Virus record (IMG/VR): IMGVR_UViG_3300021961_000037
Location: 32,001 to 96,000 of that record
Strand: one strand, 5' to 3'
Source of the DNA: a virus
DNA: 64,000 nucleotides
Shown here in pieces: positions 34,216 through 53,431 of the stretch (positions are counted from its first letter, which is position 1; each line of letters begins with the position of its first letter). Under the pieces are notes generated by a model, which worked only from the letters and a program-made list of their open reading frames with translations, ran no database searches and was not told the origin of the DNA. Made by a program: the position numbers and the translations under genes.

Positions 34216-37200
34216 GTGGCGCAAAAATTTACTGTACCTATCACTATCAAGCAGTTGGCGTCTGCTGGCTCAGATGCGCTCACGGTTTTTGTAAACGGTG
34301 AAGTTTACGGTCGCGTAAAAATTGAGGCTGGCGGTCGCTTATCGTGGAGCGACGGCACTGGTGTCTATGACACAAATCTTTATCGTGATGGCGCAAATAC
34401 GCTCGCCACTGACGACATCTTCAAGGCGCTCACGGCACTGGTTTCTCCGACAACCAATGGTGCTCCGTCGGTAAGCGTCCCAGATGGAGCGATTGCGGTT
34501 GATAACACAAACAACCGCCTATATTTCAGGTCAAACTCAACATGGCGTGTTGTTGAGGGTGGGGCAACGGTTTCCGCAACTGCTCCAAGCAACCCACTCG
34601 AAGGCGCTCTGTGGTTTGACACTAGCGATGACACGCTTTATATCCGTCAGGGAAGCGCATGGGTTGTCGCTGGAGGTGGCGGTGCTTCGGTAGAGGTTGG
34701 AGCAACTGCCCCTTCTTCCCCCAGTGAGGGGGATATGTGGTGGGATTCCAACCTTCTTGAACTTTTCATTTACTACTCGTCAGCCTGGGTTCAGGTAACA
34801 CCAAGTAGTGAATATTTTGACCTAGCAGACCTTGGCGACGTTTCCAGCACACCGCCAACAAATGGTCAAGTCCTCGTATTCAATAATTCAACTGGTGAGT
34901 ATGAGCCGACAACTTTATCCACTAGCAGTTCACTTGATGGGCTAACCGACACAACATTAACCAGCCCAACATCTGGGGAATTCCTTAAGTACAACGGAAG
35001 CGCATGGGTTAATGATGCAATTGACCTTGGAACAGACACAACAGGTAATTATGTTTCCGATGTAAGCGGAGGAACAGGTGTCACGGTTACCCACACACCA
35101 GGAGAAGGATCAACGCCATCGGTGGCGATTGGTCAGGATGTTGGGACAACCGCGGACGTAACTTTCAATACGGTCACCGCAGACCTCACGGGGAATGCTG
35201 ATACGGCAACTGCTCTACAGACTTCCAGGACGATTGAACTTACTGGTGATGTAACCGGTTCTGCATCGTTTGACGGAACAGCAAATGCGACATTGAGTGT
35301 CACGATTTCGTCCGACTCTGTCGCCCTCGGCACAGACACGACAGGTGACTATGTTCAGAACCTCGTCGCGGGTACTGGTGTCACGCTTGGTGCAAACTCG
35401 GGTGAAGGCGCAACACCAAGCATCGCCATCGGTCAAGATGTCGGAACAACAGCCGACGTCACGTTCAACACCGTAACTGCCGACCTTACGGGTGACGTGA
35501 CTGGAAATGCCGATACAGCCACATCGCTGGAGACCGCCAGAACAATCTCTCTTGGGGGTGACCTCTCTGGTTCGGCATCGTTCAATGGAACCGCCGATGT
35601 AACGATTACCGCAACGGTGCAGCCGGACTCGATTGCCCTTGGTACGGACACCACTGGCAACTACATGTCGGGTGTTACGGCTGGAACTGGAATCAGTGTC
35701 ACCCACACACCAGGTGAAGGCTCAAATGCGACGATTGCACTTGATGCTGACCTGAGCAGTTTGGGTGACATAACCGTTACGAGTCCTGAACAATATCAGA
35801 CATTGGTGTATGACGGTTCTGAGTTCATTAACGAATATCCGACAACAGTAAGCAATGTACAAAACGCAGAAACAACCACCCTCACTGTTGGAACTGTTGT
35901 CTATCTGTTTGGCGGAACTGGTGACCGCGCATCGGTAAAGAGGGCAGACAATTCATCTGACACAACGTCGTCAAAGACTGTTGGAGTCGTTGCTTCTTCT
36001 ATCAATTCTAGTGCCAACGGTCCAGTTGTCACTCGCGGATATGTGAATGGCATAAACCTAAGCAGTGGATATGCGGCAGGCGATATTCTTTGGCTTGGCT
36101 CAAACGGTCAATTCACTGCAACGAAGCCATCCACCCCCGACCATCTTGTCTTTGTCGGCGTTGTTGTTCGAGCAACAAACAATGGAATTGTATATGTAGC
36201 AACACAGAACGGCTACGAACTTGAAGAACTCCATGATGTAAAAGTTAGTAGCCTCGCCAATAAAGACGTATTGGTGTGGAACAGCGCATCGGCTGTTTGG
36301 GTCAACGGACAAATTAACCTCGGAACAGACACAGTTGGTGACTACGTTCAGAACCTTGTTGCCGGAACTGGCGTAACCATAACAGATAACTCTGGCGAAG
36401 GAACAACGCCAACAGTTGCTATAGGTCAAGACGTTTCAACAAGCGCTTCTGTGTTGTTTGCAGAAGTAGAGACAACTGGAGATTTTACCGTTGGCGGCGA
36501 CCTGTTCGTCACTGGAACACTTACAACTGTCAACGAAACAAACCTTGCGATTGAAGATACGTTCATATATCTCAACGATGGTTCGACAGTCACCAACCCG
36601 GATTTGGGAATCGTTGGCAACTACAACGACGGAACCTACGCACACTCTGGTGTGTTCCGTGACGCAACCGATGGTAAGTGGAAGTTCTTTGACTCGTACA
36701 CCCCGGAGCCAACGGACCCGATTAACACTGGGCATGCCTCTTATGCTCCTGCGCCAGTCGTAGCCGAAACATTTGAGAGCACGGTATCCACTGGCACCGC
36801 ACCGTTCACCGTTTCCTCAACGACTGAAGTAACAAACCTTCATGCTGATACTGCAAGTTCGCTGCACACAGCCCGCAACATTTCGCTTGGTGGAGATATT
36901 GCTGGCTCAGCCTCGTTTGACGGGTCTGGCGATGTCACCATCACCGCAACCGTTCAAGCGAACTCCGTTGCGCTCGGCACCGATACAACTGGCAACTACA
37001 TGGTTGACATCGCTGAGGGAACAGGTGTCACCATCACCCACACACCGGGTGAGGCGTCAACTGGAACAATCGCAATTGGTCAAGACGTTGGAACAACTGC
37101 GGACGTTACTTTCAATACCGTCACGGCAGATGTAACCGGCGACCTGACGGGAAATGTCACGGGCAACGCCGACACTGCCACTACACTGCAAACTTCCCGA

Positions 37201-40011
37201 ACTATCTCGTTGGGTGGAGACCTTTCGGGTTCTGCTTCCTTCAATGGTTCTGCGGACGTAACCATCACCGCAACGATTGGTGCCGACTCGGTTGCCCTTG
37301 GAACTGACACCACTGGCAATTACGTTCAGAATCTTGTCGCTGGTACGGGAATAACACTCACCAACAACACCGGTGAAGGTGCAACCCCAACGGTTGCTGT
37401 CACCGCAAACACATACGAAGCATTCGGTGCAGTTGCCACCCACGAATCAGACACAACCAACATTCACGGTATAACGGACACTGCCGCCCTTGTCACTTTG
37501 GCTGGGACACAGACCCTCACCAACAAGACGCTTACCAGTCCAGTCATCACTGGTGTGTCTCCGCAAATAACCCTTGCTGGAGATTTGACTGGCTCAGTAA
37601 CCCTGACCGACCTTGGCAACGGAACGCTTACGGCAACGATTGCCGCCAACTCCGTTGCTCTCGGCACAGACACAACGGGCAACTATGTAAACGATGTAAC
37701 GGCAGGTACGGGCGTCACAGTCACTCATACACCAGGTGAAGGCTCCAGCCCAACAATTGCAATTGGTCAGGCAGTTGGAACAACAAGCGACGTTACCTTC
37801 AACACAGTTACAGCCGACTTGACGGGTGATGTAACTGGAAATGCAGATACCGCAACGACCCTTGCCGCTGCGCGGACGATTTCACTTGGTGGTGACCTGA
37901 GTGGCTCGGCATCCTTTAACGGCTCGTCGGATGTAACAATCACGGCGACCATTGGTGCAGACTCCGTAACCCTCGGCACAGACACCACAGGAAACTACGT
38001 CAACGACGTAACGGCTGGCACTGGCGTAACTGTTACTCACACCCCAGGAGAAGGTTCGAGCCCGACCGTGGCAATCGGTCAGGCAGTGGCCACATCGGAC
38101 AGCCCAACATTTGCAGGTGCAACTCTTGATGCAGTCCAAATTGGAATCACTGCTGCTGGAGAGATTGACACATCTTCTGGCAATCTCACAATTGACTCTG
38201 CTGGCGGAACCGTAACGGTTGACGACAACCTGATTGTTTCTGGCGACCTCACCGTTTCTGGAACTACAACGACGGTAAATACCGAGACAATCAATTTGGC
38301 TGACAACATCATCACGCTCAACAGCAATGAAACTGGCACCCCAAGCCAAAACGCTGGTCTTGAGGTTGAGCGTGGCACCTCAACAAATGTGCAACTACGT
38401 TGGAATGAGACCAGCGACAAGTGGGAACTTTCCGAAGACGGTTCTAATTACTATGACATCGCTACCGAGGCATATGTTGATGGACAGACAATCACATCGC
38501 TGGATGACGTAGGTGATGTAACAATCACCTCTGCCACATCTGGGGATTTCCTAAAGTGGAACGGTACGGCATGGGTCAATGACCCAGTGAACTTGGGTAC
38601 GGATACGACTGGAGACTATGTCGGTTCGCTCGTCGCTGGCACTGGTGTTACCCTCACGAATAACTCCGGAGAAGGCGCAACACCGACCGTAGCAATCGGT
38701 CAAGCGGTTGGCACGACAGACAACGTCACATTCAACAGCGTTACCGCCAGTCTCACGGGCAATGCAGATACTGCAACCACGCTGGCAACTTCACGAACGA
38801 TTGCCCTCGGCGGAGATTTGTCTGGTTCGGCATCGTTTGACGGCTCGGCAAACATCACCATCACTGCAACGATTGGTGCAGATTCAGTTGCCCTCGGAAC
38901 GGACACCACCGGGAACTACATGGAGGATGTCTCGGCTGGAACGGGCATCTCGGTCACCCACACGCCAAGTGAGGGTTCCACGGCAACGGTTGCACTCAAC
39001 GCAACGTTGGACAACCTGAGCAATGTAAACGCCCCCGCACCTTCGGATGGTCAGTTCCTCAAGTACGTCTCTGCCTCGTCCGAATGGCAACCAGCGGCAA
39101 TCCCCACCATCAACAACCTTGACGATGTCGGCGATGTAAACATCACGTCCGCAACATCGGGCGATTTCTTGAAGTGGAACGGGTCTGCGTGGGTTAACGA
39201 CCCAGTAAACCTTGGAACCGATACAACAGGCGATTATGTGCAATCACTGGTCGCTGGAACCGGTATCTCTCTTGCGAATAACTCTGGCGAAGGTGCGACA
39301 CCGACGGTAACGCTGAACGCAGCGATTGATGACCTTTCCGATGTGTCTGCGGCAGCCCCAACGAGCGGAGATGTTCTTTCGTGGAACGGGTCAGCATGGG
39401 TGTCGTCTGCACCATCAAGCGGCGCATCACTCACGGTTTCTGCGACAGCACCGTCGTCACCGTCCGAAGGGGACATGTGGTTTGAGTCCGATACGGGTCG
39501 CACGTACGTGTACTACGACAGCGCATGGGTGGAAATCGGAGCCATTTCCGCAGGGTCGCGTGTCTCTATTTCTGCAAATGCACCGTCCAACCCGACGGCT
39601 GGAGACACATGGTTTGACTCAGATACTGCCCAAACCTTCATCTATTACGACAGCCAGTGGATTGAAATTGGTGCCTCGGCAATGGCTGCCACCATTGCCG
39701 GAACCGCCCCAAGCAATGCGATTGGCGGTCAAATATGGTTTGACTCCAACACAGGCGGCACCTATGTCTATTTCAACTCCACATGGGTGGAGGTTGGCGC
39801 ATCTGCCCTTGACACGCTCCTCAACACGATTGAGGCAAAGGGCGACATCCTCGTTGGAACTGCAGACAATGCGGTAGACAACCTGACGGTTGGCTCCAAC
39901 GGGCAGATTCTCGTGGCAGACTCGGCAGAGGCAACTGGTCTAAAATGGGAAACGCCAAACTACGCGTCAACAGGTAAAGCCATCGCAATGGCAATCGTCT
40001 TCGGAGGATAA
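34216..40011 (+). CDS. Giant repetitive tail fibre / scaffold (1931 aa)
   Basis: 11 LGTDT(T/V)G repeats, LDDVGDV..FLKWNG repeats, five APSxPxxGxxW domains, C-terminus GKAIAMAIVFGG. Confidence 0.85.
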   Translation: MAQKFTVPITIKQLASAGSDALTVFVNGEVYGRVKIEAGGRLSWSDGTGVYDTNLYRDGANTLATDDIFKALTALVSPTTNGAPSVSVPDGAIAVDNTNNRLYFRSNSTWRVVEGGATVSATAPSNPLEGALWFDTSDDTLYIRQGSAWVVAGGGGASVEVGATAPSSPSEGDMWWDSNLLELFIYYSSAWVQVTPSSEYFDLADLGDVSSTPPTNGQVLVFNNSTGEYEPTTLSTSSSLDGLTDTTLTSPTSGEFLKYNGSAWVNDAIDLGTDTTGNYVSDVSGGTGVTVTHTPGEGSTPSVAIGQDVGTTADVTFNTVTADLTGNADTATALQTSRTIELTGDVTGSASFDGTANATLSVTISSDSVALGTDTTGDYVQNLVAGTGVTLGANSGEGATPSIAIGQDVGTTADVTFNTVTADLTGDVTGNADTATSLETARTISLGGDLSGSASFNGTADVTITATVQPDSIALGTDTTGNYMSGVTAGTGISVTHTPGEGSNATIALDADLSSLGDITVTSPEQYQTLVYDGSEFINEYPTTVSNVQNAETTTLTVGTVVYLFGGTGDRASVKRADNSSDTTSSKTVGVVASSINSSANGPVVTRGYVNGINLSSGYAAGDILWLGSNGQFTATKPSTPDHLVFVGVVVRATNNGIVYVATQNGYELEELHDVKVSSLANKDVLVWNSASAVWVNGQINLGTDTVGDYVQNLVAGTGVTITDNSGEGTTPTVAIGQDVSTSASVLFAEVETTGDFTVGGDLFVTGTLTTVNETNLAIEDTFIYLNDGSTVTNPDLGIVGNYNDGTYAHSGVFRDATDGKWKFFDSYTPEPTDPINTGHASYAPAPVVAETFESTVSTGTAPFTVSSTTEVTNLHADTASSLHTARNISLGGDIAGSASFDGSGDVTITATVQANSVALGTDTTGNYMVDIAEGTGVTITHTPGEASTGTIAIGQDVGTTADVTFNTVTADVTGDLTGNVTGNADTATTLQTSRTISLGGDLSGSASFNGSADVTITATIGADSVALGTDTTGNYVQNLVAGTGITLTNNTGEGATPTVAVTANTYEAFGAVATHESDTTNIHGITDTAALVTLAGTQTLTNKTLTSPVITGVSPQITLAGDLTGSVTLTDLGNGTLTATIAANSVALGTDTTGNYVNDVTAGTGVTVTHTPGEGSSPTIAIGQAVGTTSDVTFNTVTADLTGDVTGNADTATTLAAARTISLGGDLSGSASFNGSSDVTITATIGADSVTLGTDTTGNYVNDVTAGTGVTVTHTPGEGSSPTVAIGQAVATSDSPTFAGATLDAVQIGITAAGEIDTSSGNLTIDSAGGTVTVDDNLIVSGDLTVSGTTTTVNTETINLADNIITLNSNETGTPSQNAGLEVERGTSTNVQLRWNETSDKWELSEDGSNYYDIATEAYVDGQTITSLDDVGDVTITSATSGDFLKWNGTAWVNDPVNLGTDTTGDYVGSLVAGTGVTLTNNSGEGATPTVAIGQAVGTTDNVTFNSVTASLTGNADTATTLATSRTIALGGDLSGSASFDGSANITITATIGADSVALGTDTTGNYMEDVSAGTGISVTHTPSEGSTATVALNATLDNLSNVNAPAPSDGQFLKYVSASSEWQPAAIPTINNLDDVGDVNITSATSGDFLKWNGSAWVNDPVNLGTDTTGDYVQSLVAGTGISLANNSGEGATPTVTLNAAIDDLSDVSAAAPTSGDVLSWNGSAWVSSAPSSGASLTVSATAPSSPSEGDMWFESDTGRTYVYYDSAWVEIGAISAGSRVSISANAPSNPTAGDTWFDSDTAQTFIYYDSQWIEIGASAMAATIAGTAPSNAIGGQIWFDSNTGGTYVYFNSTWVEVGASALDTLLNTIEAKGDILVGTADNAVDNLTVGSNGQILVADSAEATGLKWETPNYASTGKAIAMAIVFGG
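35026..39318 (+). repeat. Coding ~100-aa repeat array (GTDTTG...GEG...AIGQ...GNADTAT...SASF)
   Basis: Repeats visible in translation; DNA copies diverged at synonymous sites. Confidence 0.85.
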
Positions 40012-40014
40012 TTT

Positions 40015-40368
40015 ATGACAGCACCAAACATCGTCGGAGTCACGACCATAACGGGAAAGACGGCAGTCCTTGTCGTCACCACGAGTGCGACGGCTATTGT
40101 GGAGAACACAGCATCAAGCGGCAAAGTGTTCAAGGTGAACGCTTTGTATGTTTCCAACGTCGACGGAACGAATGCAGCAGATGTGAATGTTGATATTTAC
40201 CGTTCTTCTACGGCATACCACATCGCCAAGACGGTTTCAGTTCCCGCAGATGCAACATTGGATGTGATTGCCAAGTCCATTTACCTTGAGGAAGGTGATG
40301 CCCTGCGCCTCACGGCAAACGCAAACTCCGACCTTGAGGCGGTCTGCTCTTACGAAGAGATTAGTTAG
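40015..40368 (+). CDS. ~115-aa beta-rich adaptor (cassette 1)
   Basis: Same size, pattern and position as 41959, 45970, 50380, 55590. Confidence 0.7.
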   Translation: MTAPNIVGVTTITGKTAVLVVTTSATAIVENTASSGKVFKVNALYVSNVDGTNAADVNVDIYRSSTAYHIAKTVSVPADATLDVIAKSIYLEEGDALRLTANANSDLEAVCSYEEIS

Positions 40369-40370
40369 TC

Positions 40371-41240
40371 ATGGCGCAAATAGGCGGGATTATCGGTCCG
40401 AAGAAATCAGTAAGCATTTCTGAAGCATCCGGTGTTTGGAGCCTGGGTTTTGCCCAAAAAGAGCGAGGCGCTTCAAACTGGCCCACCTTTATTCCACAAA
40501 TCAATGTTGAGTATTTAGTTATTGCTGGAGGTGGCAGCGGCGGACCAGGCGGTGGTGGAGAACGTGGTGGTGGAGGCGCTGGTGGTTACAGAAATTCGGT
40601 TAGCGGTGAATTATCTGGTAGAAACTCGGCTGCGGAATCGCCACTAACTTTTGGTGCTGGAACATACACAGTCACGATTGGTGCTGGTGGTGCTGGTGGA
40701 AGCGGTATTCATAATAACGGAAACAATTCCGTTTTCCATACAATAACCTCCATTGGCGGTGGAAGAGGTGACTCTGGTGGCGGTGGACAAAACGTTGGAA
40801 GCGGTGGCTCAGGAGGAGGTGGTGGCGGTGCGGGGACTGCTGGACAAGGATTCAATGGAGGCACATCAATAAACAACTCTTCTGGCGGTGGTGGTGGCGG
40901 CGCAGGTGGCGCTGGAGGAAATGCCCCATCTGGAGTTGGTGGAGCAGGCTTGGCATCTTCAATAACTGGAACTTCTGTTGGTAGGGCAGGTGGAGGTGGT
41001 GCTGGAAATCCCAACTCTAATGGAGGAGGAAGTGGTGGTGGAAATGGCAATGTCAGCGGAACCGCCAATACAGGCGGAGGCGGAGGCGGCGCTGGTGGAA
41101 GCGGCGGCTCTGGAATCGTTATTGTTAGGTATTTGACCTCGGAAGCATCATGGGCATCGGTGACTGGTGGGACTGTAACTACTTCAGGCTCCTACACAGT
41201 TCACACATTCACCACCAGCGGCACGCTAAGCATTTCGTAG
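40371..41240 (+). CDS. Glycine-rich (polyglycine-II type) adhesin-like protein
   Basis: VEYLVIAGGG...GGSGIVIVRY...HTFTTSG. Confidence 0.8.
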   Translation: MAQIGGIIGPKKSVSISEASGVWSLGFAQKERGASNWPTFIPQINVEYLVIAGGGSGGPGGGGERGGGGAGGYRNSVSGELSGRNSAAESPLTFGAGTYTVTIGAGGAGGSGIHNNGNNSVFHTITSIGGGRGDSGGGGQNVGSGGSGGGGGGAGTAGQGFNGGTSINNSSGGGGGGAGGAGGNAPSGVGGAGLASSITGTSVGRAGGGGAGNPNSNGGGSGGGNGNVSGTANTGGGGGGAGGSGGSGIVIVRYLTSEASWASVTGGTVTTSGSYTVHTFTTSGTLSIS

Positions 41241-41294
41241 GTTTTAGTACTATGTTCTATAATGTAAGCACAAACATCACAGGAGAGTAAAGAA

Positions 41295-41663
41295 ATGGCT
41301 CATTTTGCCCAAATCAACGCCGACAACGTGGTGACACAGGTAATCGTCGTTTCCAACGATGATTGCGCTGGTGGCGACTATCCGACAAGCGACGCACCAG
41401 GTGCGGCATTCTGCAACAACCTGCTCGGCGGCACGTGGAAACAAACCTCGTATAACGGGAACTTCCGCAAGCGCTATGCAGGAATCGGTTACACATTCAA
41501 TGCCGACCTTGATGCATTCATTGCCCCACAGCCCTACCCCTCTTGGACGCTGAACGAAGAAACTGCCGACTGGGAAGCACCTGTTGCACGACCAGCAGAA
41601 GGCATGTGGACGTGGAATGAAGCAAATCAGGAGTGGGATGAAGTCGCATCGACAGGGGTGTAA
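41295..41663 (+). CDS. Small partner of Gly-rich protein (MAHFAQ family)
   Basis: Homologous to 51693 (APQPYPSW, W.APV.RP); TATAAT at 41258 upstream. Confidence 0.75.
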   Translation: MAHFAQINADNVVTQVIVVSNDDCAGGDYPTSDAPGAAFCNNLLGGTWKQTSYNGNFRKRYAGIGYTFNADLDAFIAPQPYPSWTLNEETADWEAPVARPAEGMWTWNEANQEWDEVASTGV

Positions 41664-41666
41664 CCC

Positions 41667-41936
41667 ATGGCGCTTTCGTTCCCTGCTAATCCTTCGGTAA
41701 ACGACACATACACGGAGGGAAGCCGTTCCTGGAAATGGAACGGCACAAAGTGGGAACTTGTTATCAGCACACTTGTTGCTGGTTCGGTATCTACTGCTGA
41801 GATAAACAACGGCGCTGTTACTACGGCAAAACTCGCCGATGGTGCTGTGACCGCAGTCAAACTTGGTCCTGGTATTGGTGGCGGTCTTGACACCGAGGCT
41901 GAGGGTGCGATTTCAATAATGGATATAGGTTCATAA
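41667..41936 (+). CDS. Short stalk with N-terminal FPxxP domain (cassette 2)
   Basis: MALSFPANP...WKWNGTKW; C-terminus GAISIMDIGS. Confidence 0.7.
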   Translation: MALSFPANPSVNDTYTEGSRSWKWNGTKWELVISTLVAGSVSTAEINNGAVTTAKLADGAVTAVKLGPGIGGGLDTEAEGAISIMDIGS

Positions 41937-41958
41937 TTAAGAGAGCGGAGTAGATGTT

Positions 41959-42294
41959 ATGGCGATTTCAAGAACAGAAACAAGACTGGGCGGTCCTACT
42001 TCGCTCGGTACCTCTACGACCGCAATTTGTTCTGCCAGTGCAGGCGTAACGGAGGTCATCAAGCAGTTGCTCATCTGCAATACGGATACTGTTGAGCGCA
42101 CTTTTAGTCTCGCCATCGGTACTGCGGCGACGGCTACGAACCGTTTCTTTTCCGCCATGCCGATTGGCGCGAATGACACGATTGTTTTGGATACTGCGAT
42201 AGTTCTTGCTCCAACGGAAACACTTGAGGGTTTGGCTGATACGGCAAGCAAGGTCGTTGTTACTGCTCTTGGCTGGGAAAAGACGACTACCTGA
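41959..42294 (+). CDS. ~115-aa adaptor (cassette 2)
   Basis: Close paralog of 45970 (RTETRLGGPT). Confidence 0.75.
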   Translation: MAISRTETRLGGPTSLGTSTTAICSASAGVTEVIKQLLICNTDTVERTFSLAIGTAATATNRFFSAMPIGANDTIVLDTAIVLAPTETLEGLADTASKVVVTALGWEKTTT

Positions 42295-43325
42295 TGGCTC
42301 TTTCTGCTGGTCTCGGCGCAGGCGGTAATCGACCTGGTGTTTGCACTAGCAGTACTCGCCCTGCTTCGCCCTATCTCGGGCAGACAATTTTTGAGACTGA
42401 CACCAACAAAATGAAAGTTTGGTTAGGTTCAAATTGGTCATCTGGTACTGCACATACCACACCATTCGCAGTTGAATACCTTGTGGTTGCTGGCGGTGCT
42501 GGCGGTGGCTACACCCATGGTGGTGGTGGCGGTGCTGGCGGTTATAGGTCGTCGGTTTCTGGTGAGTCATCTGGTGGAGGTGGTTCAGCAGAAACAACAT
42601 TGGCTTTAGATTTGGGAACATACACCGTCACCGTAGGTGCTGGCGGAGCGGCTGGAACAACCTCCAATGCGACTGGTGTAAATGGTTCTAATTCGGTTTT
42701 TTCCTCTATTACTTCTACTGGTGGTGGTTACGGAAACAGTTACAACAACAGCCCTGCAAATGGAAACTCTGGTGGTTCTGGCGGTGGCGGTGCTGGTGCC
42801 AATACCGCTGGCAACGGTGGTGCAGGAACGTCAAGCCAGGGCTATGCAGGTGGTAACGCAAGTTCTAATGGTACGGCAGGTAACGGCGGCGGTGGTGGTG
42901 GTGCTGGTGCTGTTGGTGCTAATGCTACTGGTGCTATAGGGACGGGTTCTGCTGGTAATGGTGGTGATGGTGTGAGTTCTTCCATCAACGGTACGGCTAC
43001 CACTCGTGCTGGTGGTGGTGGTGGTGGTAGATGGAGTTCAGGAACTTTTGGTTCTGGTGGTTCTGGCGGTGGCGGGCGTGGAGGGTATCCATCGAATGTT
43101 GCAACTGCTGGAACGGCAAATACGGGTAGCGGTGGCGGTGGCGGTGGTGACGGCGATACGCCTGTCGGCGGTGCGGGTGGTTCTGGAATCGTTATTATTC
43201 GCTATTTGACTGCCGATGCAAGCGGCTACACAGTCACAGGCGGAACAAAAGTGGTTGGTCCAACTGGAGCAACCTCTTACACCGTTCACACATTCACATC
43301 TAGTGGAAGTTTGGTGATTGCATGA
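42294..43325 (+). CDS. Gly-rich adhesin-like protein with PGVCTS N-terminal domain
   Basis: RPGVCTSSTRPASPYLGQTIFETDT followed by Gly-rich domain. Confidence 0.8.
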   Translation: MALSAGLGAGGNRPGVCTSSTRPASPYLGQTIFETDTNKMKVWLGSNWSSGTAHTTPFAVEYLVVAGGAGGGYTHGGGGGAGGYRSSVSGESSGGGGSAETTLALDLGTYTVTVGAGGAAGTTSNATGVNGSNSVFSSITSTGGGYGNSYNNSPANGNSGGSGGGGAGANTAGNGGAGTSSQGYAGGNASSNGTAGNGGGGGGAGAVGANATGAIGTGSAGNGGDGVSSSINGTATTRAGGGGGGRWSSGTFGSGGSGGGGRGGYPSNVATAGTANTGSGGGGGGDGDTPVGGAGGSGIVIIRYLTADASGYTVTGGTKVVGPTGATSYTVHTFTSSGSLVIA

Positions 43326-43984
43326 CCGTCTCAGCAACAAGCAACGGTCTCCGTCCAGGAGTATGCACCTCAACTAATCGTCCGTCTACGCCGTTCGACG
43401 GAATGGTTATTTATGAGACGGATACGGATTTGGTGAAGGCGTATAACGGTTCGTCATGGGAAACCGTCGGACCTACTACGGCTAGCGGACTTTCCTATCT
43501 CACGGGTGCATCATTTAGCGCGGTGTCGACCGTCAGTTTTGCATCGGGCGTATTCACATCGACGTACCAGAACTATGTAGTGACGCTAAATCTGACGGCA
43601 TCAAGCACAGACCAAGATATTTCAATTCGCGTCAATAACGCTGGTACACCGCGAACCGCCGCAAACTATTACGGTTCCAAAACGACTATCACCGGCCCGG
43701 GTACGTCAACAAATACCGGAACCAATGGCGGAACGTCCCATAACGCTATGCGAACATTAAGCGCATACATAACATTGGGCGCAACTATTCAGGTTTATTC
43801 ACCATTGGCAACGGGAACCAATACGTCGTGGACGGTTCAGGCGTTCGGCGCGGAATCAGTTAGCAGCGCAAACATTGTTAGCGGTTGTACGTACAACGCA
43901 CTAGAGGCGCATGATGGTCTAACTTTCGTTGTTGGTGGCACGATTACCGGCAATTACCGCGTGTACGGTATTGCGAACAGTTAG
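43322..43984 (+). CDS. Beta-rich tip protein with PGVCTS N-terminal domain
   Basis: Paralog of 49063 (GVFTS.Y.NY ... ITG.Y..YG). Confidence 0.7.
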   Translation: MTVSATSNGLRPGVCTSTNRPSTPFDGMVIYETDTDLVKAYNGSSWETVGPTTASGLSYLTGASFSAVSTVSFASGVFTSTYQNYVVTLNLTASSTDQDISIRVNNAGTPRTAANYYGSKTTITGPGTSTNTGTNGGTSHNAMRTLSAYITLGATIQVYSPLATGTNTSWTVQAFGAESVSSANIVSGCTYNALEAHDGLTFVVGGTITGNYRVYGIANS

Positions 43985-43992
43985 GAGTCATC

Positions 43993-44199
43993 ATGTCTAA
44001 ACCACTAATCCAAATTGGCGACGAGGTTCGCGAGATGAACGACGCAGAAGTCGCGCAACGGCAACTTGACATTCAGACCGCCGAAGCAGTGAAAGCAGAA
44101 GCAGAAGCGGCAGCCGCTATTCGCCAGTCAGCACTTGCCAAACTTGCCGCTATCGGTCTAACCGACGACGAAATCAACGCAATCGTTGGGGGTGTCTAA
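43993..44199 (+). CDS. Small partner protein (REM...LGLTDDE family)
   Basis: Paralog of 49725. Confidence 0.7.
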   Translation: MSKPLIQIGDEVREMNDAEVAQRQLDIQTAEAVKAEAEAAAAIRQSALAKLAAIGLTDDEINAIVGGV

Positions 44200-45407
44200 T
44201 GCCGTTATCTAATGTAATCGGTGCCTCATCCATCCTGAAGCCAGGTGTCTGCACGTCGTCAACTCGCCCTGCCTCCCCGTATGACGGGCAAGTTATTTAC
44301 GAGACAGACACGAACCTGACGCTTGTGTATGAGGGCTCAGAGTGGGCGGTATTGAATCAACAGGTTTTTGGCAGTCGCAACGTGGTTATCAATGGCGCGA
44401 TGCAGGTGGCACAACGAGGAACAAGTACGGCGGGCATCACGACAAGCGGCTATTTCACGGCGGATAGGTGGCGAGTGAACTACTCGTCGCTTGGGACATG
44501 GACTCAAAGCGTTGAGAATGATGCGCCGACTGGTTCGGGTCTGCGCCAATCGCTAAAAATGCTTTGTACTACGGCTAATGCCGCACCTGCGGCAGGTGAT
44601 GTTCTATTTATGCAGTACCGATTTGAGGGTCAAAATGTGCAACAGTTTCTCAAAGGAACTGCGTCAGCCAAATCTTTCATGCTGACGTTCTGGGTCAAAT
44701 CAAATGTGACGGGAACTTTTATTGCTGAGGTTGCCGACGTTGACAACACTCGCCAAGTTTCCAAGTCATACACGATTTCGGCTTCGGAAACTTGGGAAAA
44801 GAAAACCATTGATTTCGGCGCAGACACAACGGGTGTGTTTGATAACGATAATGCTGGTTCGCTGTTTCTGAACTTTCACATGGGCGCAGGAACCAATTAC
44901 ACATCAGGAACACTAAACACGAATTGGGCAACAACCGTTACCGCAAACCGTGTTATCGGTCAAGTCAATGTCGCCGCCGCCACGAACAATTATTTCCAAA
45001 TCACTGGTGTTCAGTTGGAAGCAGGTTCGGTGGCGACACCGTTTGAGTTTGAGGACTACGGAACGACACTTGCCAAATGCCAGCGGTACTACTGGCGACT
45101 TGTTGAAGGTTCAGGAGCCGAAAGAATCTCTGTTGCCGCAGCGCACAGTTCGTCTGATGCGAGAGCCGTAATAACATTTCCAACCACTATGCGAACGAGT
45201 CCCACCCTAGAAATCGCAACTGGTGCCTACTATTCGTTTGAAAGAAACAATGCAGACGACGACATTACGAGCCTCACAATAGCCCAGGCTTCAAAAAGCA
45301 GTTGTTTGATTTACAACAACACGGAAATATCCTCAACCGCAGGACACGCTGGTAATTTTCGTGCAACCAGCGCATCTGCAAGACTATCGTTTACTGCGGA
45401 ACTGTGA
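44199..45407 (+). CDS. Tip protein with PGVCTS domain and carbohydrate-binding-like domain
   Basis: RNVVINGAMQVAQRG...DRW...GVQLEAGSVATPFE...CQRYY. Confidence 0.75.
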   Translation: MPLSNVIGASSILKPGVCTSSTRPASPYDGQVIYETDTNLTLVYEGSEWAVLNQQVFGSRNVVINGAMQVAQRGTSTAGITTSGYFTADRWRVNYSSLGTWTQSVENDAPTGSGLRQSLKMLCTTANAAPAAGDVLFMQYRFEGQNVQQFLKGTASAKSFMLTFWVKSNVTGTFIAEVADVDNTRQVSKSYTISASETWEKKTIDFGADTTGVFDNDNAGSLFLNFHMGAGTNYTSGTLNTNWATTVTANRVIGQVNVAAATNNYFQITGVQLEAGSVATPFEFEDYGTTLAKCQRYYWRLVEGSGAERISVAAAHSSSDARAVITFPTTMRTSPTLEIATGAYYSFERNNADDDITSLTIAQASKSSCLIYNNTEISSTAGHAGNFRATSASARLSFTAEL

Positions 45408-45589
45408 TGAGAAAATATTACAAACAATCCATTATTGGCGGAGTATGGTCAATTTGGTATGAGGAAAACGGTTTTCGTTACTCTTTCACCGAAACAAATT
45501 CCGAAAACGCCGACTATCAGGCGTACCTTGCGTGGGTTGCTGAAGGCAACACCGCAGAAGAATGGCAACCAGACGGCGGAGGTGAATAA
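45404..45589 (+). CDS. Small partner protein
   Basis: NADYQAYLAWVAEGN; overlaps neighbours on both sides. Confidence 0.7.
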   Translation: MMRKYYKQSIIGGVWSIWYEENGFRYSFTETNSENADYQAYLAWVAEGNTAEEWQPDGGGE

Positions 45590-45966
45590 TGGCTATTGAT
45601 TTCCCCAACTCCCCCACGAACGGTGACCTGTTCTCTGCTGGTGGAAAGAACTGGCAGTACAACGGAACCGCTTGGGTTCTTCTAGGCATCATCCCCAACG
45701 TAAGACTTCTTGACGACGTAGGTGACGTAACAATCACCTCAGCAACATCTGGGGACTTCCTCAAATGGAACGGCTCTGCATGGGTCAATGACACTATTCC
45801 GACCATCAACAACTTGAACGACGTGGGTGACGTAACGATTACATCTGCCGCTTCCGGAGAGTTTCTCAAATGGAACGGAAGCGCATGGGTCAATGCCGTC
45901 GCTTCCACGGATGTCATGACAGACACCAAGAATGCGGCAATAATCACCATGGATATAGGAGCGTAA
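45589..45966 (+). CDS. Short stalk with N-terminal FPxxP domain (cassette 3)
   Basis: MAIDFPNSPTNGD...WQYNGTAW; two DVGDVTITS repeats; ends AAIITMDIGA. Confidence 0.75.
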   Translation: MAIDFPNSPTNGDLFSAGGKNWQYNGTAWVLLGIIPNVRLLDDVGDVTITSATSGDFLKWNGSAWVNDTIPTINNLNDVGDVTITSAASGEFLKWNGSAWVNAVASTDVMTDTKNAAIITMDIGA

Positions 45967-45969
45967 GTT

Positions 45970-46308
45970 ATGGCAGTTGGCGACAGGACAGAGACACGGC
46001 TTGGCGGACCCACACAGTTGGGTACGTCGACCACGACGGTTTGCACGGCTGCGTCAGGTTACGCAGAAATAATCAAGCAAATCATCATCACGAACACTGA
46101 CACGGTGGACCGCACGTTCAGTCTTGCCATTGGCTCGGCTGCAACGGCGGCAAACAGAATCATTTCTCAGTTGCCCATTGGCGCCAACGACATAATGGTC
46201 TTGGACACTGCTTTGGTGTTGAATGCCACGGAAACCCTTGAGGGTCTTGCTGATGCTGCGAGCGTCGTGAATGTCACGGCGATTGGCTGGGAAAAGCAGG
46301 TTTCGTAA
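45970..46308 (+). CDS. ~115-aa adaptor (cassette 3)
   Basis: Close paralog of 41959. Confidence 0.75.
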   Translation: MAVGDRTETRLGGPTQLGTSTTTVCTAASGYAEIIKQIIITNTDTVDRTFSLAIGSAATAANRIISQLPIGANDIMVLDTALVLNATETLEGLADAASVVNVTAIGWEKQVS

Positions 46309-46311
46309 ACC

Positions 46312-49034: not shown

Positions 49035-49062
49035 AATCGTTTATCATTGAGGTGAGGTAATC

Positions 49063-49722
49063 ATGCCGTTTTCTTCAGTTTTAGGTGCATCTTCGGTCAT
49101 CAAGCCTGGTGTCTGCACGTCCTCAACCCGCCCAACGGTTCCCTATGAGGGGCAGTTGATTTATGAGACGGATACAGACAGGGTTGCTTCTTGGAACGGC
49201 TCTGCTTGGGTATATACGGCGACTGGAGGGCTAATCACAGTAAAGGGGGAGACGGCATTCTCCAATGTCGCAAATGTGACCGCTGACGGCGTATTCACTA
49301 GCGCATACACGAACTACCGAATGATTATTCGTTTTCAGATAAGTGTTGGGCAACTCTCGTTTCAGTTACGTGCCGCAACGGTTGACGCAACAACGAATTA
49401 TTCAACGCAAAGCATAGTCGCAAACGGTGCAACGCTATCAGGAGCACGTACAACAAGCACATCAAACGCAAACATCGGAAACAATGGTAACGGAGCGTTT
49501 TGGGGATTGGCAGTTGTGGAATTGAGCGGTCCACAACTAGCCGAGCCGACGCTTTACCAATCGCAATTTTTGCGACAAGACGGAAACTACACAACGGCTA
49601 CAGTAATTCAAAACTACTACGGTAATCATTCAGATTCAACAAGTTATGACGGCATAAAATTATTGGGTACTAGCGCCAACATTACGGGCAGTTACACCAT
49701 CTATGGATACGCAAAGGTCTAA
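49063..49722 (+). CDS. Beta-rich tip protein with PGVCTS domain
   Basis: Paralog of 43322. Confidence 0.7.
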   Translation: MPFSSVLGASSVIKPGVCTSSTRPTVPYEGQLIYETDTDRVASWNGSAWVYTATGGLITVKGETAFSNVANVTADGVFTSAYTNYRMIIRFQISVGQLSFQLRAATVDATTNYSTQSIVANGATLSGARTTSTSNANIGNNGNGAFWGLAVVELSGPQLAEPTLYQSQFLRQDGNYTTATVIQNYYGNHSDSTSYDGIKLLGTSANITGSYTIYGYAKV

Positions 49723-49724
49723 CC

Positions 49725-49934
49725 ATGAGAACCAACGACAACGGAATTGACCGAGAAATGACAGCAGAAGAAGCCGCAGCACATACTGCTTGGATGACAG
49801 TAGCGGCACAAGAAGCAGAAGAACTCGCCCAAGCCGAAGCCGCTCGCATCGCCGCCAAGGAATCCGCCAAAGCCAAACTCGCAGCCCTTGGTCTAACTGA
49901 TGACGAAATCAACGCAATCATTGGAGGTGTGTGA
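49725..49934 (+). CDS. Small partner protein (REM...LGLTDDE family)
   Basis: Paralog of 43993. Confidence 0.7.
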   Translation: MRTNDNGIDREMTAEEAAAHTAWMTVAAQEAEELAQAEAARIAAKESAKAKLAALGLTDDEINAIIGGV

Positions 49935-50122
49935 TGCCTATTGACTTTCCTGGCTCCCCATCCACTGGTGACCACTACTCCTACGACGAGCGCACATGGA
50001 GATGGGATGGCTCTACATGGCGATTAGTGGTCAGTGGTACCATTGACTACAACATCGACGGGGGTGGAGCCGCCACTGTTTATGGTGGACAAAGTGTTAT
50101 TGACGGAGGAGGCGTAGCGTAA
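49931..50122 (+). CDS. FPxxP + (I/Y)DGG linker protein (cassette 4)
   Basis: IDFPGSPSTGD...WRWDGSTW...IDGG...IDGG. Confidence 0.7.
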   Translation: MMPIDFPGSPSTGDHYSYDERTWRWDGSTWRLVVSGTIDYNIDGGGAATVYGGQSVIDGGGVA

Positions 50123-50371
50123 ATGGCTGTAAGAATTCAGTTCAGGCGAGGCACTGCCTCTGAGTGGACCTCTGCCAACCCGACCCTTGCACAGGGCGAG
50201 TTTGCCCTAGAGACGGACACCGGCTACTACAAGGTCGGTGACGGTTCCACGGCATGGACTTCTCTCTCTTATGGGGGGACAACCGGTCAGCCAGGTACAA
50301 ACGGAACAAATGGTCTTGATGCGGTATACGATACTGATCAAGCAGTAATAAGTGCACGAGTTTTTAGTTAG
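50123..50371 (+). CDS. Short stalk with Mtd-type N-terminal domain
   Basis: RIQFRRGTASEWTSANPTLAQGEFALETDT..KVGDG; short GXY run; ends AVISARVFS. Confidence 0.75.
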   Translation: MAVRIQFRRGTASEWTSANPTLAQGEFALETDTGYYKVGDGSTAWTSLSYGGTTGQPGTNGTNGLDAVYDTDQAVISARVFS

Positions 50372-50379
50372 GGGAAAAT

Positions 50380-50739
50380 ATGGCTACATTTGCAAAAACT
50401 ATTCTGAGTGGTTCAACGGATGGAAAACTCATCAAGGTTGTTCAGACGGCAACTGCTGGAACCACAATCCATACTGGTCCGACTGACACCTCGCATTTCC
50501 ACGAAGTATGGCTGTACGCAGTCAATAGTGATACGACCGATCGCAAGTTGACGATTGAGTGGGGTGGCACTACGTCGCCCGACGATTTAATCGAGTACAC
50601 AGTCAAAGCAGAAAACGGTCTATATTTGATTGTTCCTGGATTTATTCTTAAAGGTAATGCCACACCTCTTGTTGTGCGAGCATTCTGCGCTTCGGCAAAC
50701 GTGGTGTCTGTGGGCGGATACGTTAACACGATTACCTGA
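50380..50739 (+). CDS. ~115-aa adaptor (cassette 4)
   Basis: Size, beta pattern (N.DT..R.LTI) and position. Confidence 0.65.
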   Translation: MATFAKTILSGSTDGKLIKVVQTATAGTTIHTGPTDTSHFHEVWLYAVNSDTTDRKLTIEWGGTTSPDDLIEYTVKAENGLYLIVPGFILKGNATPLVVRAFCASANVVSVGGYVNTIT

Positions 50740-50757
50740 TTGGGAGGGTGATTAGTT

Positions 50758-51696
50758 TTGCCAGGTCAATCACGGAACACGCAGGGCGGAAAATCGCTTG
50801 CAACGCAGTTGAGTCCTCGCAATATGCGGACTGGAACTGGTCAAGTGAACGCATTGTGGCAGGGTCAAGGTCCACCGTTTCTTGCTACTGGTGGTACTGG
50901 AACAACGCTGAACGGATTTAGGTATTTGGTATTCACAAGCAGCAGCACTCTTACCGTTACTGACGGTGGGACCGCAGAGGTTCTTGTTGTCGCTGGTGGC
51001 GGCGGTGGCGCATCAAACAACGGTGCTGGTGGTGGTGGAGGCGGTATCCGCACTAGTACTGGGCTTACTTATCAAAGTTTGGAATTCTCGTCCGGAACCT
51101 ATTCCGTGACGGTCGGGAGTGGCGGCACAGCACCTGGCGATGGAGTCGTAGGCAATGGAGGCAAGGGCGGTAATAGCAGCATTGTTCACAGCGGTGGCAC
51201 TCTTTCTGCAACTGGTGGCGGAGCAGGAGTTTACGTTGGCGATGGTGGTGATGGTGGTTCGGGTGGTGGCAGAAACCAATACAATGGTGGCAGTCGTGGC
51301 GGTTTAGGCAACCAAGGTGGCTACACGCCGTCAGAAGGAAATAATGGTTCTGCTGGCGGCTCACCGAATGGTATCGGTGGCGGAGGTGGTTTCAATGCTG
51401 CAACCAGTACCGGTCACGGAGCACAAGGTTTGACAGTAAATAACCTTGATTCCAACTTGTCAACGATTCTCGGTTATACGGTTATTTCGTCTGGTGGTGG
51501 TGGTTCTGGTAACTGCAACGCTGGTGGAACAAACGGCGCTGGTGGAACAGGTGCAGGAGGAGGCGGATACGGCAATAATGCTGGTGCTGGTGTTTCCTAT
51601 GGTTCTGGCGGAGGTGGAGGAAATAACTGTTTCGGCTCCGTCTATCACGGCGGTGTTGGAAAATCAGGTGTCGTTGTGGTGAGGTTCCCAGCGTGA
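50758..51696 (+). CDS. Gly-rich adhesin-like protein
   Basis: EVLVVAGGGG...GKSGVVVVRF. Confidence 0.8.
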   Translation: MPGQSRNTQGGKSLATQLSPRNMRTGTGQVNALWQGQGPPFLATGGTGTTLNGFRYLVFTSSSTLTVTDGGTAEVLVVAGGGGGASNNGAGGGGGGIRTSTGLTYQSLEFSSGTYSVTVGSGGTAPGDGVVGNGGKGGNSSIVHSGGTLSATGGGAGVYVGDGGDGGSGGGRNQYNGGSRGGLGNQGGYTPSEGNNGSAGGSPNGIGGGGGFNAATSTGHGAQGLTVNNLDSNLSTILGYTVISSGGGGSGNCNAGGTNGAGGTGAGGGGYGNNAGAGVSYGSGGGGGNNCFGSVYHGGVGKSGVVVVRFPA

Positions 51697-51989
51697 GCAA
51701 AATGTATGCCGAACTAGAAGGCTCTGTTGTTGTCAACATCATCGTTGCCGATGAATCATTTGTGAATAGTCAAGAAAATCCAGAACGATTTGTTGAATAC
51801 ACGGAGCAAAATCCAGCATTCATAGACGGAGATTATGTTGGAGGCTACTTCTATGCGCCACAGCCGTATCCGTCGTGGAGCAGGAACGGCGCTGGGTTGT
51901 GGGTTGCTCCAGTTGAACGTCCTCAGTATGCCGATTACTGGGATGAGGAAAATCAGCAGTGGGTTTTGTTAACTGAACTTCCCGACTAA
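51693..51989 (+). CDS. Small partner of Gly-rich protein (homolog of 41295)
   Basis: APQPYPSW, WVAPVERP, WDEENQQW. Confidence 0.75.
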   Translation: MSKMYAELEGSVVVNIIVADESFVNSQENPERFVEYTEQNPAFIDGDYVGGYFYAPQPYPSWSRNGAGLWVAPVERPQYADYWDEENQQWVLLTELPD

Positions 51990-51998
51990 CATGTATTT

Positions 51999-52532
51999 GT
52001 GCTTCAATTATTCGAAGACCTATTAGACCCGGATTATGCAAAAACTATTGAAAAAACAATGCTGTCAAACGCATTCCCATACTATTTCTTCGCCGACATT
52101 GATTATGGGAAAGGCAATGATGTTTATAACTTTGGATTTTCCCACACATTCGTTGACCAGTTTGCCGAATCACGAAGTGATTTTTTAGAACTTGTTTTGC
52201 CTGTTGCTTTTGCAATCGGTGATGCACTTGATCTGAAACTTACGCAACTTATACGAATTCGTGGGGTTATGTTGACACCAATTGGCATCGGATACAACCA
52301 TGTCCGACATACGGACTTGGCCAGTGACCCAGACTCATTGACTGCCGTGTACTATGTGAACGATTCGGATGGGGCGACCACCATATACAACGGAGAAGAT
52401 GTAGTGAGTGTCAATCCAAAGCAAAACAGTGCTGTCGTATTTGATACACATATGGAACATCATGGTGCAAAACCCGTAAAAACAGCATCACGGGTGGTTT
52501 TGAATATAAACTTCAGAGGTGAACCACAATGA
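51999..52532 (+). CDS. 2OG-Fe(II) oxygenase
   Basis: HTD, YYVNDSDG, distal H, RVVLNIN. Confidence 0.85.
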   Translation: MLQLFEDLLDPDYAKTIEKTMLSNAFPYYFFADIDYGKGNDVYNFGFSHTFVDQFAESRSDFLELVLPVAFAIGDALDLKLTQLIRIRGVMLTPIGIGYNHVRHTDLASDPDSLTAVYYVNDSDGATTIYNGEDVVSVNPKQNSAVVFDTHMEHHGAKPVKTASRVVLNINFRGEPQ

Positions 52533-53143
52533 CTTCCAAACCCATTATTGAGCAGTGGTTCCCTAAACCTTTATATATTGTGAATGACTTCATGGTCGAT
52601 GAGTTGGTGATGTATAAAAAATGGTTATACGAACTGTTTTCTTTAAATGATGACATGAAGAGGACGGAAGAATTAAATGTAAATAGCACGCATAACATGA
52701 CAACTCTTCATACGCAGGATATTTTCAGGAACTTGTCAAACGAGATAACGAAGAATGCAACTCAATTCGTGAGAATGCTCGGGTATTCTGGCGACCTTTT
52801 CATTAACAACATGTGGGCTAATCATGTTGTCAAGGGTGAATACTTATTCCCCCACAACCATCCGAACAGCATGTTGAGCGGCGCCTACTATGTTGAGTCT
52901 GACCACCCCGAAGATGTAATCAAATTTTACGATAATCCCATGAACATGCTTCCTGCGCCAGACGAGTACACATCACTTAGTTACGATTATTGTGCATACA
53001 GATGCCAGCCTGGAAGACTGATTCTCTTTAAGAGCGATTTCATTCATGGCTGCCCTGCCCTAAAAGGGGAAAGCAAAATTGTGATGTCTTTCAATATTGG
53101 GTTTGTCGGTTCTTTTGATTTTGAGGTCACCAAACCCGCATAA
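52529..53143 (+). CDS. 2OG-Fe(II) oxygenase (TIGR02466-like)
   Basis: WAN, HNHPNSMLSGAYY, HG, MSFN. Confidence 0.85.
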   Translation: MTSKPIIEQWFPKPLYIVNDFMVDELVMYKKWLYELFSLNDDMKRTEELNVNSTHNMTTLHTQDIFRNLSNEITKNATQFVRMLGYSGDLFINNMWANHVVKGEYLFPHNHPNSMLSGAYYVESDHPEDVIKFYDNPMNMLPAPDEYTSLSYDYCAYRCQPGRLILFKSDFIHGCPALKGESKIVMSFNIGFVGSFDFEVTKPA

Positions 53144-53251
53144 AACTCAATGAGTATTTGCCCCAAATCACCTTAACTGCTAGTTTATTTCAAATCAAAT
53201 ACATCTAAATGGTGTAAAATTAGGTAACTTCTGATTTGTTTGGAGACCCAG

Positions 53252-53428
53252 TTGAGTATCGCATTTCCGAGCGCCCCTTCCAACGACCAAGAATTCATTG
53301 CCGCGGGGAAAGCATGGACATGGAACGGCTCACGGTGGCTCAGGTCTGAATACTCCATAATTGATGGTGGCAATTCGGGAAGTGAACAGAATACCGCAAA
53401 ATATATTTACGACGGTGGGACGGCATAA
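53252..53428 (+). CDS. FPxxP + (I/Y)DGG linker protein (cassette 5)
   Basis: IAFPSAP...WTWNGSRW...IDGG...YDGG; TTG start after GGAG. Confidence 0.7.
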   Translation: MSIAFPSAPSNDQEFIAAGKAWTWNGSRWLRSEYSIIDGGNSGSEQNTAKYIYDGGTA

Positions 53429-53431
53429 CTT

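Follow-up and report, generated by a model that had tools for sequence, protein, structure and literature searches.

Branched tailspike complexes are known from the phages CBA120 and G7C. In the related anchor-branch complexes of KP32 and K11, both podophages of Klebsiella, a T4gp10-like branching domain on receptor-binding protein 1 (RBP1) binds a conserved N-terminal peptide of ~35 amino acids (aa) on RBP2, and this binding has been shown experimentally (PMC13579863). Here, we analysed a tail-fibre locus in a 64,000-nucleotide window that spans bases 32001-96000 of the IMG/VR record IMGVR_UViG_3300021961_000037, a single virus contig of 114,094 bp with a completeness of 78% according to CheckV. 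Coordinates below refer to this window. In the locus, a giant trunk fibre carries internal modules that we call sockets, and four small proteins encoded downstream begin with a module that we call a plug. In the best explanation, the region belongs to an uncultured marine myophage and is its multi-cassette tail-fibre locus, with fibre proteins built from one family of beta-meander modules of ~35-40 residues. The single likeliest reading of these modules, which we put forward tentatively, is that short fibres are mounted on the socket-bearing trunk by their plug heads, which would pack against paralogous modules there. As in KP32 and K11, the plug is a short, conserved and strictly N-terminal module with exchangeable C-terminal parts behind it, the trunk is encoded upstream, and branching is proposed to carry several host-binding tips. 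Unlike in KP32 and K11, the candidate docking site is a module of ~40 aa that is homologous to the head itself, and the phages that carry these modules are myophages, in which a genome has up to 7-10 heads. Pfam and PHROG gave no match to a T4gp10-like domain on the trunk, of which the structure search covered the C-terminal 197 residues only.

The virus is assigned to the myophages because the window encodes a large terminase, a tail sheath, a tape-measure-like protein and a baseplate J-like wedge. Its fibre genes form a long run on the plus strand, from ~32.9 to 57.8 kb, and this run contains the plug and socket modules. No close relative of the genome was found in the GenBank phage collection, and megablast with the 5' end of the trunk gene returned no match. 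The fibre modules are also present in IMG/VR contigs and in marine T4-like cyanophages, and a limited literature search found no description of them.

The trunk (P0001, 34216-40011, plus strand) is a protein of 1,931 aa that was delimited by its open reading frame (ORF) and translation and that matches PHROG tail-fibre families. From the N-terminus, it consists of an N-terminal domain (N-domain, residues 1-120), the socket modules S0-S2, a long repeat shaft, the sockets S3-S5 and a C-terminal tail that ends in ...KAIAMAIVFGG. Four sockets were found both with a strict regular expression, whose matches start at 34708, 39448, 39580 and 39706 within the trunk ORF, and with a hidden Markov model (HMM). 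These are S2 (34699-34806, residues 162-197, 71.1 bits), S3 (39439-39546, residues 1742-1777, 76.4 bits), S4 (39571-39678, residues 1786-1821, 72.2 bits) and S5 (39697-39804, residues 1828-1863, 68.9 bits), the final module before a conserved C-terminal block. S1 (34573-34680, residues 120-155, 65.7 bits) is a fifth clear socket that the strict expression missed, as it reads ...LYIRQGSAW where the pattern wants ...YY.S.W. S0 (34462-34554, residues ~83-113) is a degenerate, socket-like module with a weak HMM match (4-12 bits, independent E-value 0.09-3.9). The trunk sockets keep their positional identity between genomes: the nearest neighbour lies in another genome for 42 of 50, and S5 best matches the last of four sockets in the related contig G033 (65% identity). 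This is compatible with specific partners as well as with specific structural contexts.

All four plug proteins are encoded on the plus strand, and the plug expression matches at 41679, 45601, 49946 and 53264, each time at the start of an ORF. Plug protein 1 (41667-41936, 89 aa, plug HMM 75.6 bits) has the plug head at residues 1-36 and the tail ...GAISIMDIGS, and an adaptor gene comes after it; its N-terminus matches the N-termini of PHROG 17970 and 3449 and annotated cyanophage tail-fibre proteins. Plug protein 2 (45589-45966, 125 aa, 73.8 bits) contains the head, two short SGDFLKWNGSAWV modules and the tail ...AAIITMDIGA. Plug protein 3 (49931-50122, 63 aa, 77.8 bits) consists of the head and the tail ...VYGGQSVIDGGGVA; it ends in TAA, directly before the start of a gene with an Mtd_N head. 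Plug protein 4 (53252-53428, 58 aa, 73.1 bits) consists of the head and the tail ...KYIYDGGTA, with a TTG start at 53252 that fits better than a start at 53240, and the next gene encodes a 718-aa fibre with an Mtd_N head.

The original prediction, from which this analysis started, was that four sockets on the giant fibre, beside more divergent copies, match exactly four plug genes, a match that it allowed could be coincidental. Its two patterns do occur at the positions and in the ORFs that it gave: the regular expressions return four matches each, both in the window and in the 114,094-bp genome, with all six frames searched, and with HMM domain scores of 66-78 bits these matches are not due to chance. 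The count of four plug genes stands as well, as these are the only plug-class modules in the whole genome. The count of four sockets does not, given the fifth socket at 34573 (65.7 bits, against 69-76 bits for the others) and the degenerate sixth at ~34462. Because the socket HMM also matches the heads of the proteins encoded at 32868, 42294, 43322, 44199 and 49063, the locus holds a total of 10-11 socket-family modules, on the trunk and on these five other proteins. The 4:4 match is thus a product of the strictness of the patterns.

To compare the two kinds of module, we aligned 45 plugs (A1) and 60 sockets (A2), taken from related contigs as well as from the window. A1 and A2 match each other from end to end, with a single indel of 2 residues (hhalign, 87%, E 3.9e-6), and larger plug and socket sets gave 92% with an E-value of 6.9e-7. 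In both, x-P-x-S-P-x-x-[GN]-[DQ] is followed by two aromatic strands with a turn between them, and then by [GS]-x-x-W before the final strand. As judged from these profile alignments, plug and socket are two subfamilies of one beta-meander module of ~35-40 aa. In the AlphaFold2 (AF2) model of the last 197 trunk residues, flexible linkers connect three separate mini-domains of four strands each (predicted local distance difference test, pLDDT, 79.6; predicted template modelling score, pTM, 0.31), one of which is S3. A natural plug-socket didomain from a relative was modelled as a 3-strand meander, the plug, followed by a 4-strand socket (pLDDT 78, pTM 0.43). In these models, plug and socket have the same topology, with the first strand missing from the plug.

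These comparisons bear on the cohesin/dockerin-like pairing that had been proposed for the two modules. A dockerin is a duplicated calcium-binding loop-helix motif of ~70 aa, and a cohesin is a nine-stranded beta-sandwich of ~140 aa. The modules described here have 35-40 aa and are all-beta with 3-4 strands in the AF2 models, and no Pfam or NCBIfam match was found on the plugs or the trunk. Rather than forming a complementary pair, plug and socket are homologous over their full length (87-92%) and have the same AF2 strand pattern. The FPxxP sequence of the plug, which had been taken for a free peptide ligand, loses its special status because every socket carries its own xPxSP leader at the equivalent position. 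Both the homology of the modules and their number speak against an arrangement in which four specific sockets each bind one FPxxP plug through complementary cohesin/dockerin-like folds and so mount four branches. The strict patterns do return four and four, and the relatives G033, G034 and L006/L010 have a trunk with four sockets together with four plug genes. However, the trunk of our phage has a fifth socket of equal score as well as the degenerate sixth, the close relative G001 has five trunk sockets and seven plugs, G028 has one socket on a root stub and five plugs, and cohesin, dockerin or other Pfam and NCBIfam matches are lacking. We consider this strict arrangement very improbable; the docking idea is partly supported and survives in a looser form than the one in which it was first worded.

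The module occurs in several versions that differ in their place in the protein. Sockets are internal and strongly acidic, plugs are found only at the extreme N-terminus (M-A/P-I-D-F-P...), and a C-type version (GVCTSSTRP...) mostly heads proteins or follows a plug. The socket profile matches, along its full length, the N-terminal 'GVCTSSTRPxxPxxGQxIYETDT...W.GS.W' module of the proteins at 42294, 43322, 44199, 49063 and 32868. After one profile iteration on 65 related loci, socket and C-type merged (339 of 343 domains shared; hhalign, 99.7%), and by this measure they are one family. Pfam, NCBIfam and PDB sequence searches identified no significant family for plug or socket. A described family to compare is Mtd_N (PF18454), known from the major tropism determinant (Mtd) of the Bordetella phage BPP-1 (PDB 1YU0) and from hyaluronidase-type tail fibres, which is likewise a small N-terminal beta module that heads trimeric fibres. 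Both share a G-E/D...E/D-T/S-D-T...G...W pattern, and in two proteins of the locus the equivalent position is taken by a true Mtd_N head: an 82-aa protein after plug protein 3 (50123-50371, plus strand, 61.3 bits with PF18454) and the 718-aa fibre after plug protein 4 (53432-55588, plus strand, 45.8 bits), which also matches PHROG tail-fibre families. The Pfam Mtd_N model matches only these two proteins above its gathering score, and at E <= 0.1 it misses the plug, trunk and C-type-headed proteins. Profile support and structural similarity are weak: hhalign with a local alignment of Mtd_N gave 71% with C-type, 49.5% with sockets and 0.3% with plugs, and VIA gave Z-scores of 3.0-3.6 to residues 5-49 of Mtd. 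On this weak evidence, Mtd_N is possibly a remote relative of the C-type module. DUF2793, represented by the receptor-binding protein gp54 of JBD30 (PDB 8RK3), showed no Pfam match and a weak PDB profile match (E 0.41), and its structure scores were weak as well (Foldseek E 0.017, probability 0.47; VIA Z 3.0-3.7).

Foldseek against PDB returned nothing at E <= 1e-3, and all VIA structural matches had Z < 6, which is below the level for claiming fold identity and allows analogy only. Among these, the best look-alikes are small trimer-forming beta units, namely the trimerisation domain of multiplexin (collagen XV/XVIII; PDB 3N3F, 9BNB; Z 4.4-5.6) and tailspike necks and N-terminal layers. The multiplexin domain, a beta unit of ~50 residues, is the best structural match to one socket plus linker (Z 5.6/5.0 and 4.4/4.6), and the plug-socket head of phage proteins often precedes collagen-like repeats. 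Unlike a homologue, the multiplexin domain has no sequence relationship with the phage module, and the Z-scores are too low to claim a common fold, so that it serves as an analogy only.

These look-alikes favour a second reading, nearly as likely as docking, in which the fibre shaft is trimerised or kept in register by the sockets, as knots whose conserved aromatic residues are buried in the trimer core. The plug, C-type and Mtd_N heads would then be N-terminal caps that nucleate trimers and anchor fibres to the baseplate or to proteins other than the sockets. In addition to the low-scoring matches to trimer-forming units (collagen XV/XVIII domain, Z 5.6, 5.0 and 4.6; tailspike necks; residues 5-49 of Mtd), several observations are in line with such knots. 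The number of sockets at the trunk C-terminus ranges from 1 to 7 among relatives, as for a length-variable repeat. Many proteins of relatives have a plug directly followed by a socket in the same chain, and plug-socket heads in BFVD precede collagen-like, C1q, Gly-rich and annotated tail-fibre proteins. Each module also has ~9 hydrophobic or aromatic residues, probably too many for a monomer of 40 residues.

We also considered that the socket arrays, especially the distal S3-S5, bind host glycans or cations in the manner of choline-binding or cell-wall-binding hairpin repeats and are not assembly sites. The arrays are tandem, distal, rich in conserved Trp and Tyr and strongly acidic (net charge -4.6 per module), and choline-binding repeat proteins are among the weak Foldseek matches. 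However, those matches have a probability <= 0.1, and the same module is also found in proximal positions (S1, S2) and at many N-termini, which are not places where one would expect a receptor to be bound. At its true distal end, the trunk has a further conserved block and the tail, followed by the adaptor and tip genes. Ligand binding by the sockets seems very improbable.

Next, the numbers of plugs (A1) and sockets (A2) were determined with one cut-off, E <= 1e-5, in 27 whole records: 15 IMG/VR contigs, of which 11 have a completeness of at least 90%, and 12 genomes of cultured cyanophages, including Kyanoviridae. The two counts were correlated (Spearman rho 0.91, n = 27; 0.80 among the 20 plug-bearing genomes), with about 1.6 socket-family modules per plug. 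Sockets were at least as numerous as plugs in 27/27 genomes, and no genome had plugs without sockets. Of the seven genomes without plugs, three have one weak match that resembles a socket; S-PM2, Syn9 and S-TIM5 have neither module, and P-SSM2 has four plugs and four sockets. Mtd_N counts, which served as a control, do not track plugs: MA01 has nine plugs and no Mtd_N, and Syn9 has no plugs and one Mtd_N. The co-variation that had been expected of a plug-socket system was therefore found, whereas strict 1:1 equality was not. Socket and plug numbers were equal in 6 of the 20 plug-bearing genomes at E <= 1e-5 and in 10 of the 20 when sockets were restricted to at least 45 bits, and equality as a rule was rejected for this dependence on the cut-off. 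Plug and socket modules travel together, roughly in proportion and not strictly 1:1. If the sockets were knots of the shaft, this co-variation would come only from plug and socket being variants of one repeat in the same phage lineages, which leaves unexplained that sockets are never outnumbered by plugs and that no genome has plugs alone.

The architecture of the trunk in relatives points to a link between plug heads and a root protein. The N-domain with the first socket (residues ~121-135) is kept in 25 distinct homologous ORFs of related contigs, in every lineage found, and heads proteins with ORF lengths of 172 to 1,937 aa; the position of S1 behind the N-domain is kept in all homologues of the root protein. 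In G028, which is 100% complete, the trunk is split. A stub of 188 aa is 63% identical to residues 1-156 of the giant fibre and ends soon after S1, and 13 kb downstream of it lies a plug-headed protein of 904 aa that matches residues 250-480 and 1597-1931 of the giant. This protein includes the C-terminal socket array and the identical ...KAIAMAIVFGG tail and has the same downstream adaptor and Gly-rich genes. Contigs of the L024 type encode a stub (N-domain and S1), then a protein with a plug and three sockets, and then plug-headed proteins in a row. Fission of the trunk with a plug head on the detached body suggests, by Rosetta-stone reasoning, that the plug head replaces the covalent link to the socket-bearing root and that plug-headed proteins would bind the root protein. 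Knots of the shaft would leave unexplained why the stub of N-domain and S1 is retained beside a plug-headed fibre body. A direct exchange of S2 for the G028 plug was considered and rejected, as the BLAST alignment starts at residue 250 of the giant, at its first short SGEFLKYNGSAWV module. This module (residues ~250-275) is the alignment partner of the plug in the 904-aa fibre.

Gene order points to a further type of joint. Sixteen distinct module-bearing proteins end in '(Y/F)GG....DGG(G/S)', and in 16/16 cases the next gene starts with a plug (7) or with Mtd_N (9). In the seven cases with a plug as the next head, a socket precedes the tail. If sockets were shaft knots, it would remain unexplained why proteins with a socket and a DGG tail always precede head-bearing genes. 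In our window, plug proteins 3 and 4 are the two proteins with a DGG tail, and the next gene encodes an Mtd_N protein in both cases, so that the best-supported type of joint there would be one between the tail of a plug protein and an Mtd_N head. Each of these pairs of ORFs shares a reading frame, with 0 or 1 codon between them (49931-50371; 53252-55588). Fusion of the pairs by stop read-through was rejected, as both stops are TAA and the small plug-only ORFs are kept in relatives. The long tail fibre of T4 is unbranched and is assembled end to end from gp34, gp35, gp36 and gp37, with joints that use other domains. By analogy, the order of DGG tail and head could be read as serial joints, since T4, too, joins the products of successive genes non-covalently into one fibre. 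In P-SSM2 (L162, NC_006883.2; ~19.3-25.2 kb and 218.8-220.7 kb), 4/4 plug-headed genes lie directly 3' of a socket-containing gene and one protein has both modules; by its gene order, this locus looks like a chain.

In phage receptor-binding proteins, for instance those of KP32 and K11, a conserved head in front of a variable body classically marks an attachment module. Plugs are regarded as candidate docking heads because they are strictly N-terminal and precede highly variable bodies: in 45/45 aligned plugs, FP comes 3-4 residues after the start codon, and the C-terminal parts behind the head are unrelated to each other and range from tails of 20 aa and mini-proteins of 58 aa to fibres of 1,000 aa. 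The varied proteins behind plug-socket heads in BFVD fit this picture as well. In the docking reading, the trunk would attach to the baseplate via its conserved N-domain and the four short plug-headed proteins would be mounted on the trunk, with their N-terminal module packed against sockets of the same family. Each joint would thus lie between paralogous domains and not be a lock-and-key contact of unrelated folds. Each branch would carry its own adaptor and tips through its C-terminal tail. The numbers need not be 4:4 in this model, where a trunk with 5-6 sockets would serve four heads, and all proteins would presumably be trimers.

Several points weigh against docking. The contact of plug on socket is purely putative, and the natural plug-socket didomain was not confidently packed by AF2 (pTM 0.43). 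The docking of one trimer side-on to another would be geometrically awkward. Charge matching between the partners is weak, since plugs are not basic (mean net charge -1.2, with one conserved Lys, against -4.6 for sockets). The division of roles is not clean, because the C-type modules of the socket family themselves head proteins at the N-terminus. No plug gene in the window is preceded by a protein with a socket and a DGG tail, the best-supported joint type of the relatives. The dependence of count equality on the score cut-off belongs here as well, and the genomes compared are phylogenetically non-independent, so that two variants of one repeat are expected to co-occur by shared ancestry.

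A wider proposal, which we regard as rather doubtful, concerns marine myophages, among them the cultured T4-like cyanophages P-SSM2, S-N03 and MA01. Their tail fibres may have several levels, branched or daisy-chained, with a code of joints that is legible in the sequence. In this code, an N-terminal head (plug or Mtd_N) would pack onto a paralogous module, internal or C-terminal, of the preceding protein, either a socket or a plug with a DGG tail. Hydrophobic tails of the AIAM/MDIG type would recruit adaptors of ~115 aa and tips. Trunks, branches and leaves would be recognised by their module content, as sockets only, plug and socket, and plug only, respectively. If plug heads do seat on sockets, gene sequence alone could suffice to predict how complex phage fibres branch and in what order they are assembled, in a large group of ocean phages that includes the cyanophages controlling Prochlorococcus and Synechococcus. 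This would allow many 'hypothetical' genes of fibre loci to be classed as trunk, branch, adaptor or tip. Alongside the branching domain and conserved peptide of Klebsiella phages, there would then be a second way of docking, unrelated to the first, with paralogues as partners. If the sockets are shaft knots instead, the analysis defines a widespread fibre module of ~40 residues that has no Pfam or NCBIfam model, and the numerical coincidence is explained away.

The remaining proteins of the locus that are headed by a socket-family module are all encoded on the plus strand and were identified with the socket and C-type profiles. Upstream of the trunk lies a 430-aa protein (32868-34160) with a C-type module at residues ~26-57 (iterated socket profile, E 6e-10; C-type profile, E 1e-9), whose synteny with the trunk is kept in relatives. 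Four putative tips have C-type heads: a Gly-rich protein (42294-43325, GVCTSSTRP...), a 220-aa protein (43322-43984), a 402-aa protein whose C-terminal part matches PHROG 4492 (tail fibre; 44199-45407) and a 219-aa protein (49063-49722). A further socket-family module (98838-98924 of contig G000, minus strand; A2, E 7.5e-6; A1, E 1e-3) is located away from the fibre locus, ~2.8 kb beyond the window end, in a 240-aa ORF on the opposite strand.

Five paralogous 'adaptor' genes of ~111-120 aa were recognised from their translations and with an adaptor HMM, the first at 40015-40368 (plus strand) and the others at 41959-42294, 45970-46308, 50380-50739 and 55590-55952. Each comes after a fibre protein with a hydrophobic C-terminal tail, and a Gly_rich_2 protein follows the adaptor. 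The five tails are ...AIAMAIVFGG (39970-40011), ...ISIMDIGS (41900-41936), ...IITMDIGA (45930-45966), ...VISARVFS (50340-50371) and ...RFYMEVI (55560-55588). According to the adaptor HMM, the order of tail and adaptor is also found in G028, G033, L010 and G002. The locus further contains ten copies of a shorter module, S/T-x-x-S-G-D/E-F-L-K-W-N-G-S-A-W-V-N, which resembles a plug minus one hairpin (34975-35007, 38542-38574, 39160-39192, 39367-39399, 45751-45888, 53639-53671 and 55184-55426).

Two small, acidic, Trp-rich proteins (41295-41663 and 51693-51989; PHROG 7759; '...WDEE.Q.W...') may be assembly factors. Homologues of the first lie directly 5' of plug-headed genes in G028 and G033 too. 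Fibre cassettes 4 and 5 are separated by two ORFs of 177 and 204 aa (51999-53143). Outside the fibre genes, a 377-aa protein encoded among structural genes (15813-16946) matches PHROG 2302 (phosphoadenosine phosphosulfate reductase, E 4e-78). An 838-aa ORF on the minus strand (6614-9130) has head-maturation protease matches at residues 10-189 and a weaker match to a major head protein, and may encode a protease-scaffold-capsid fusion.

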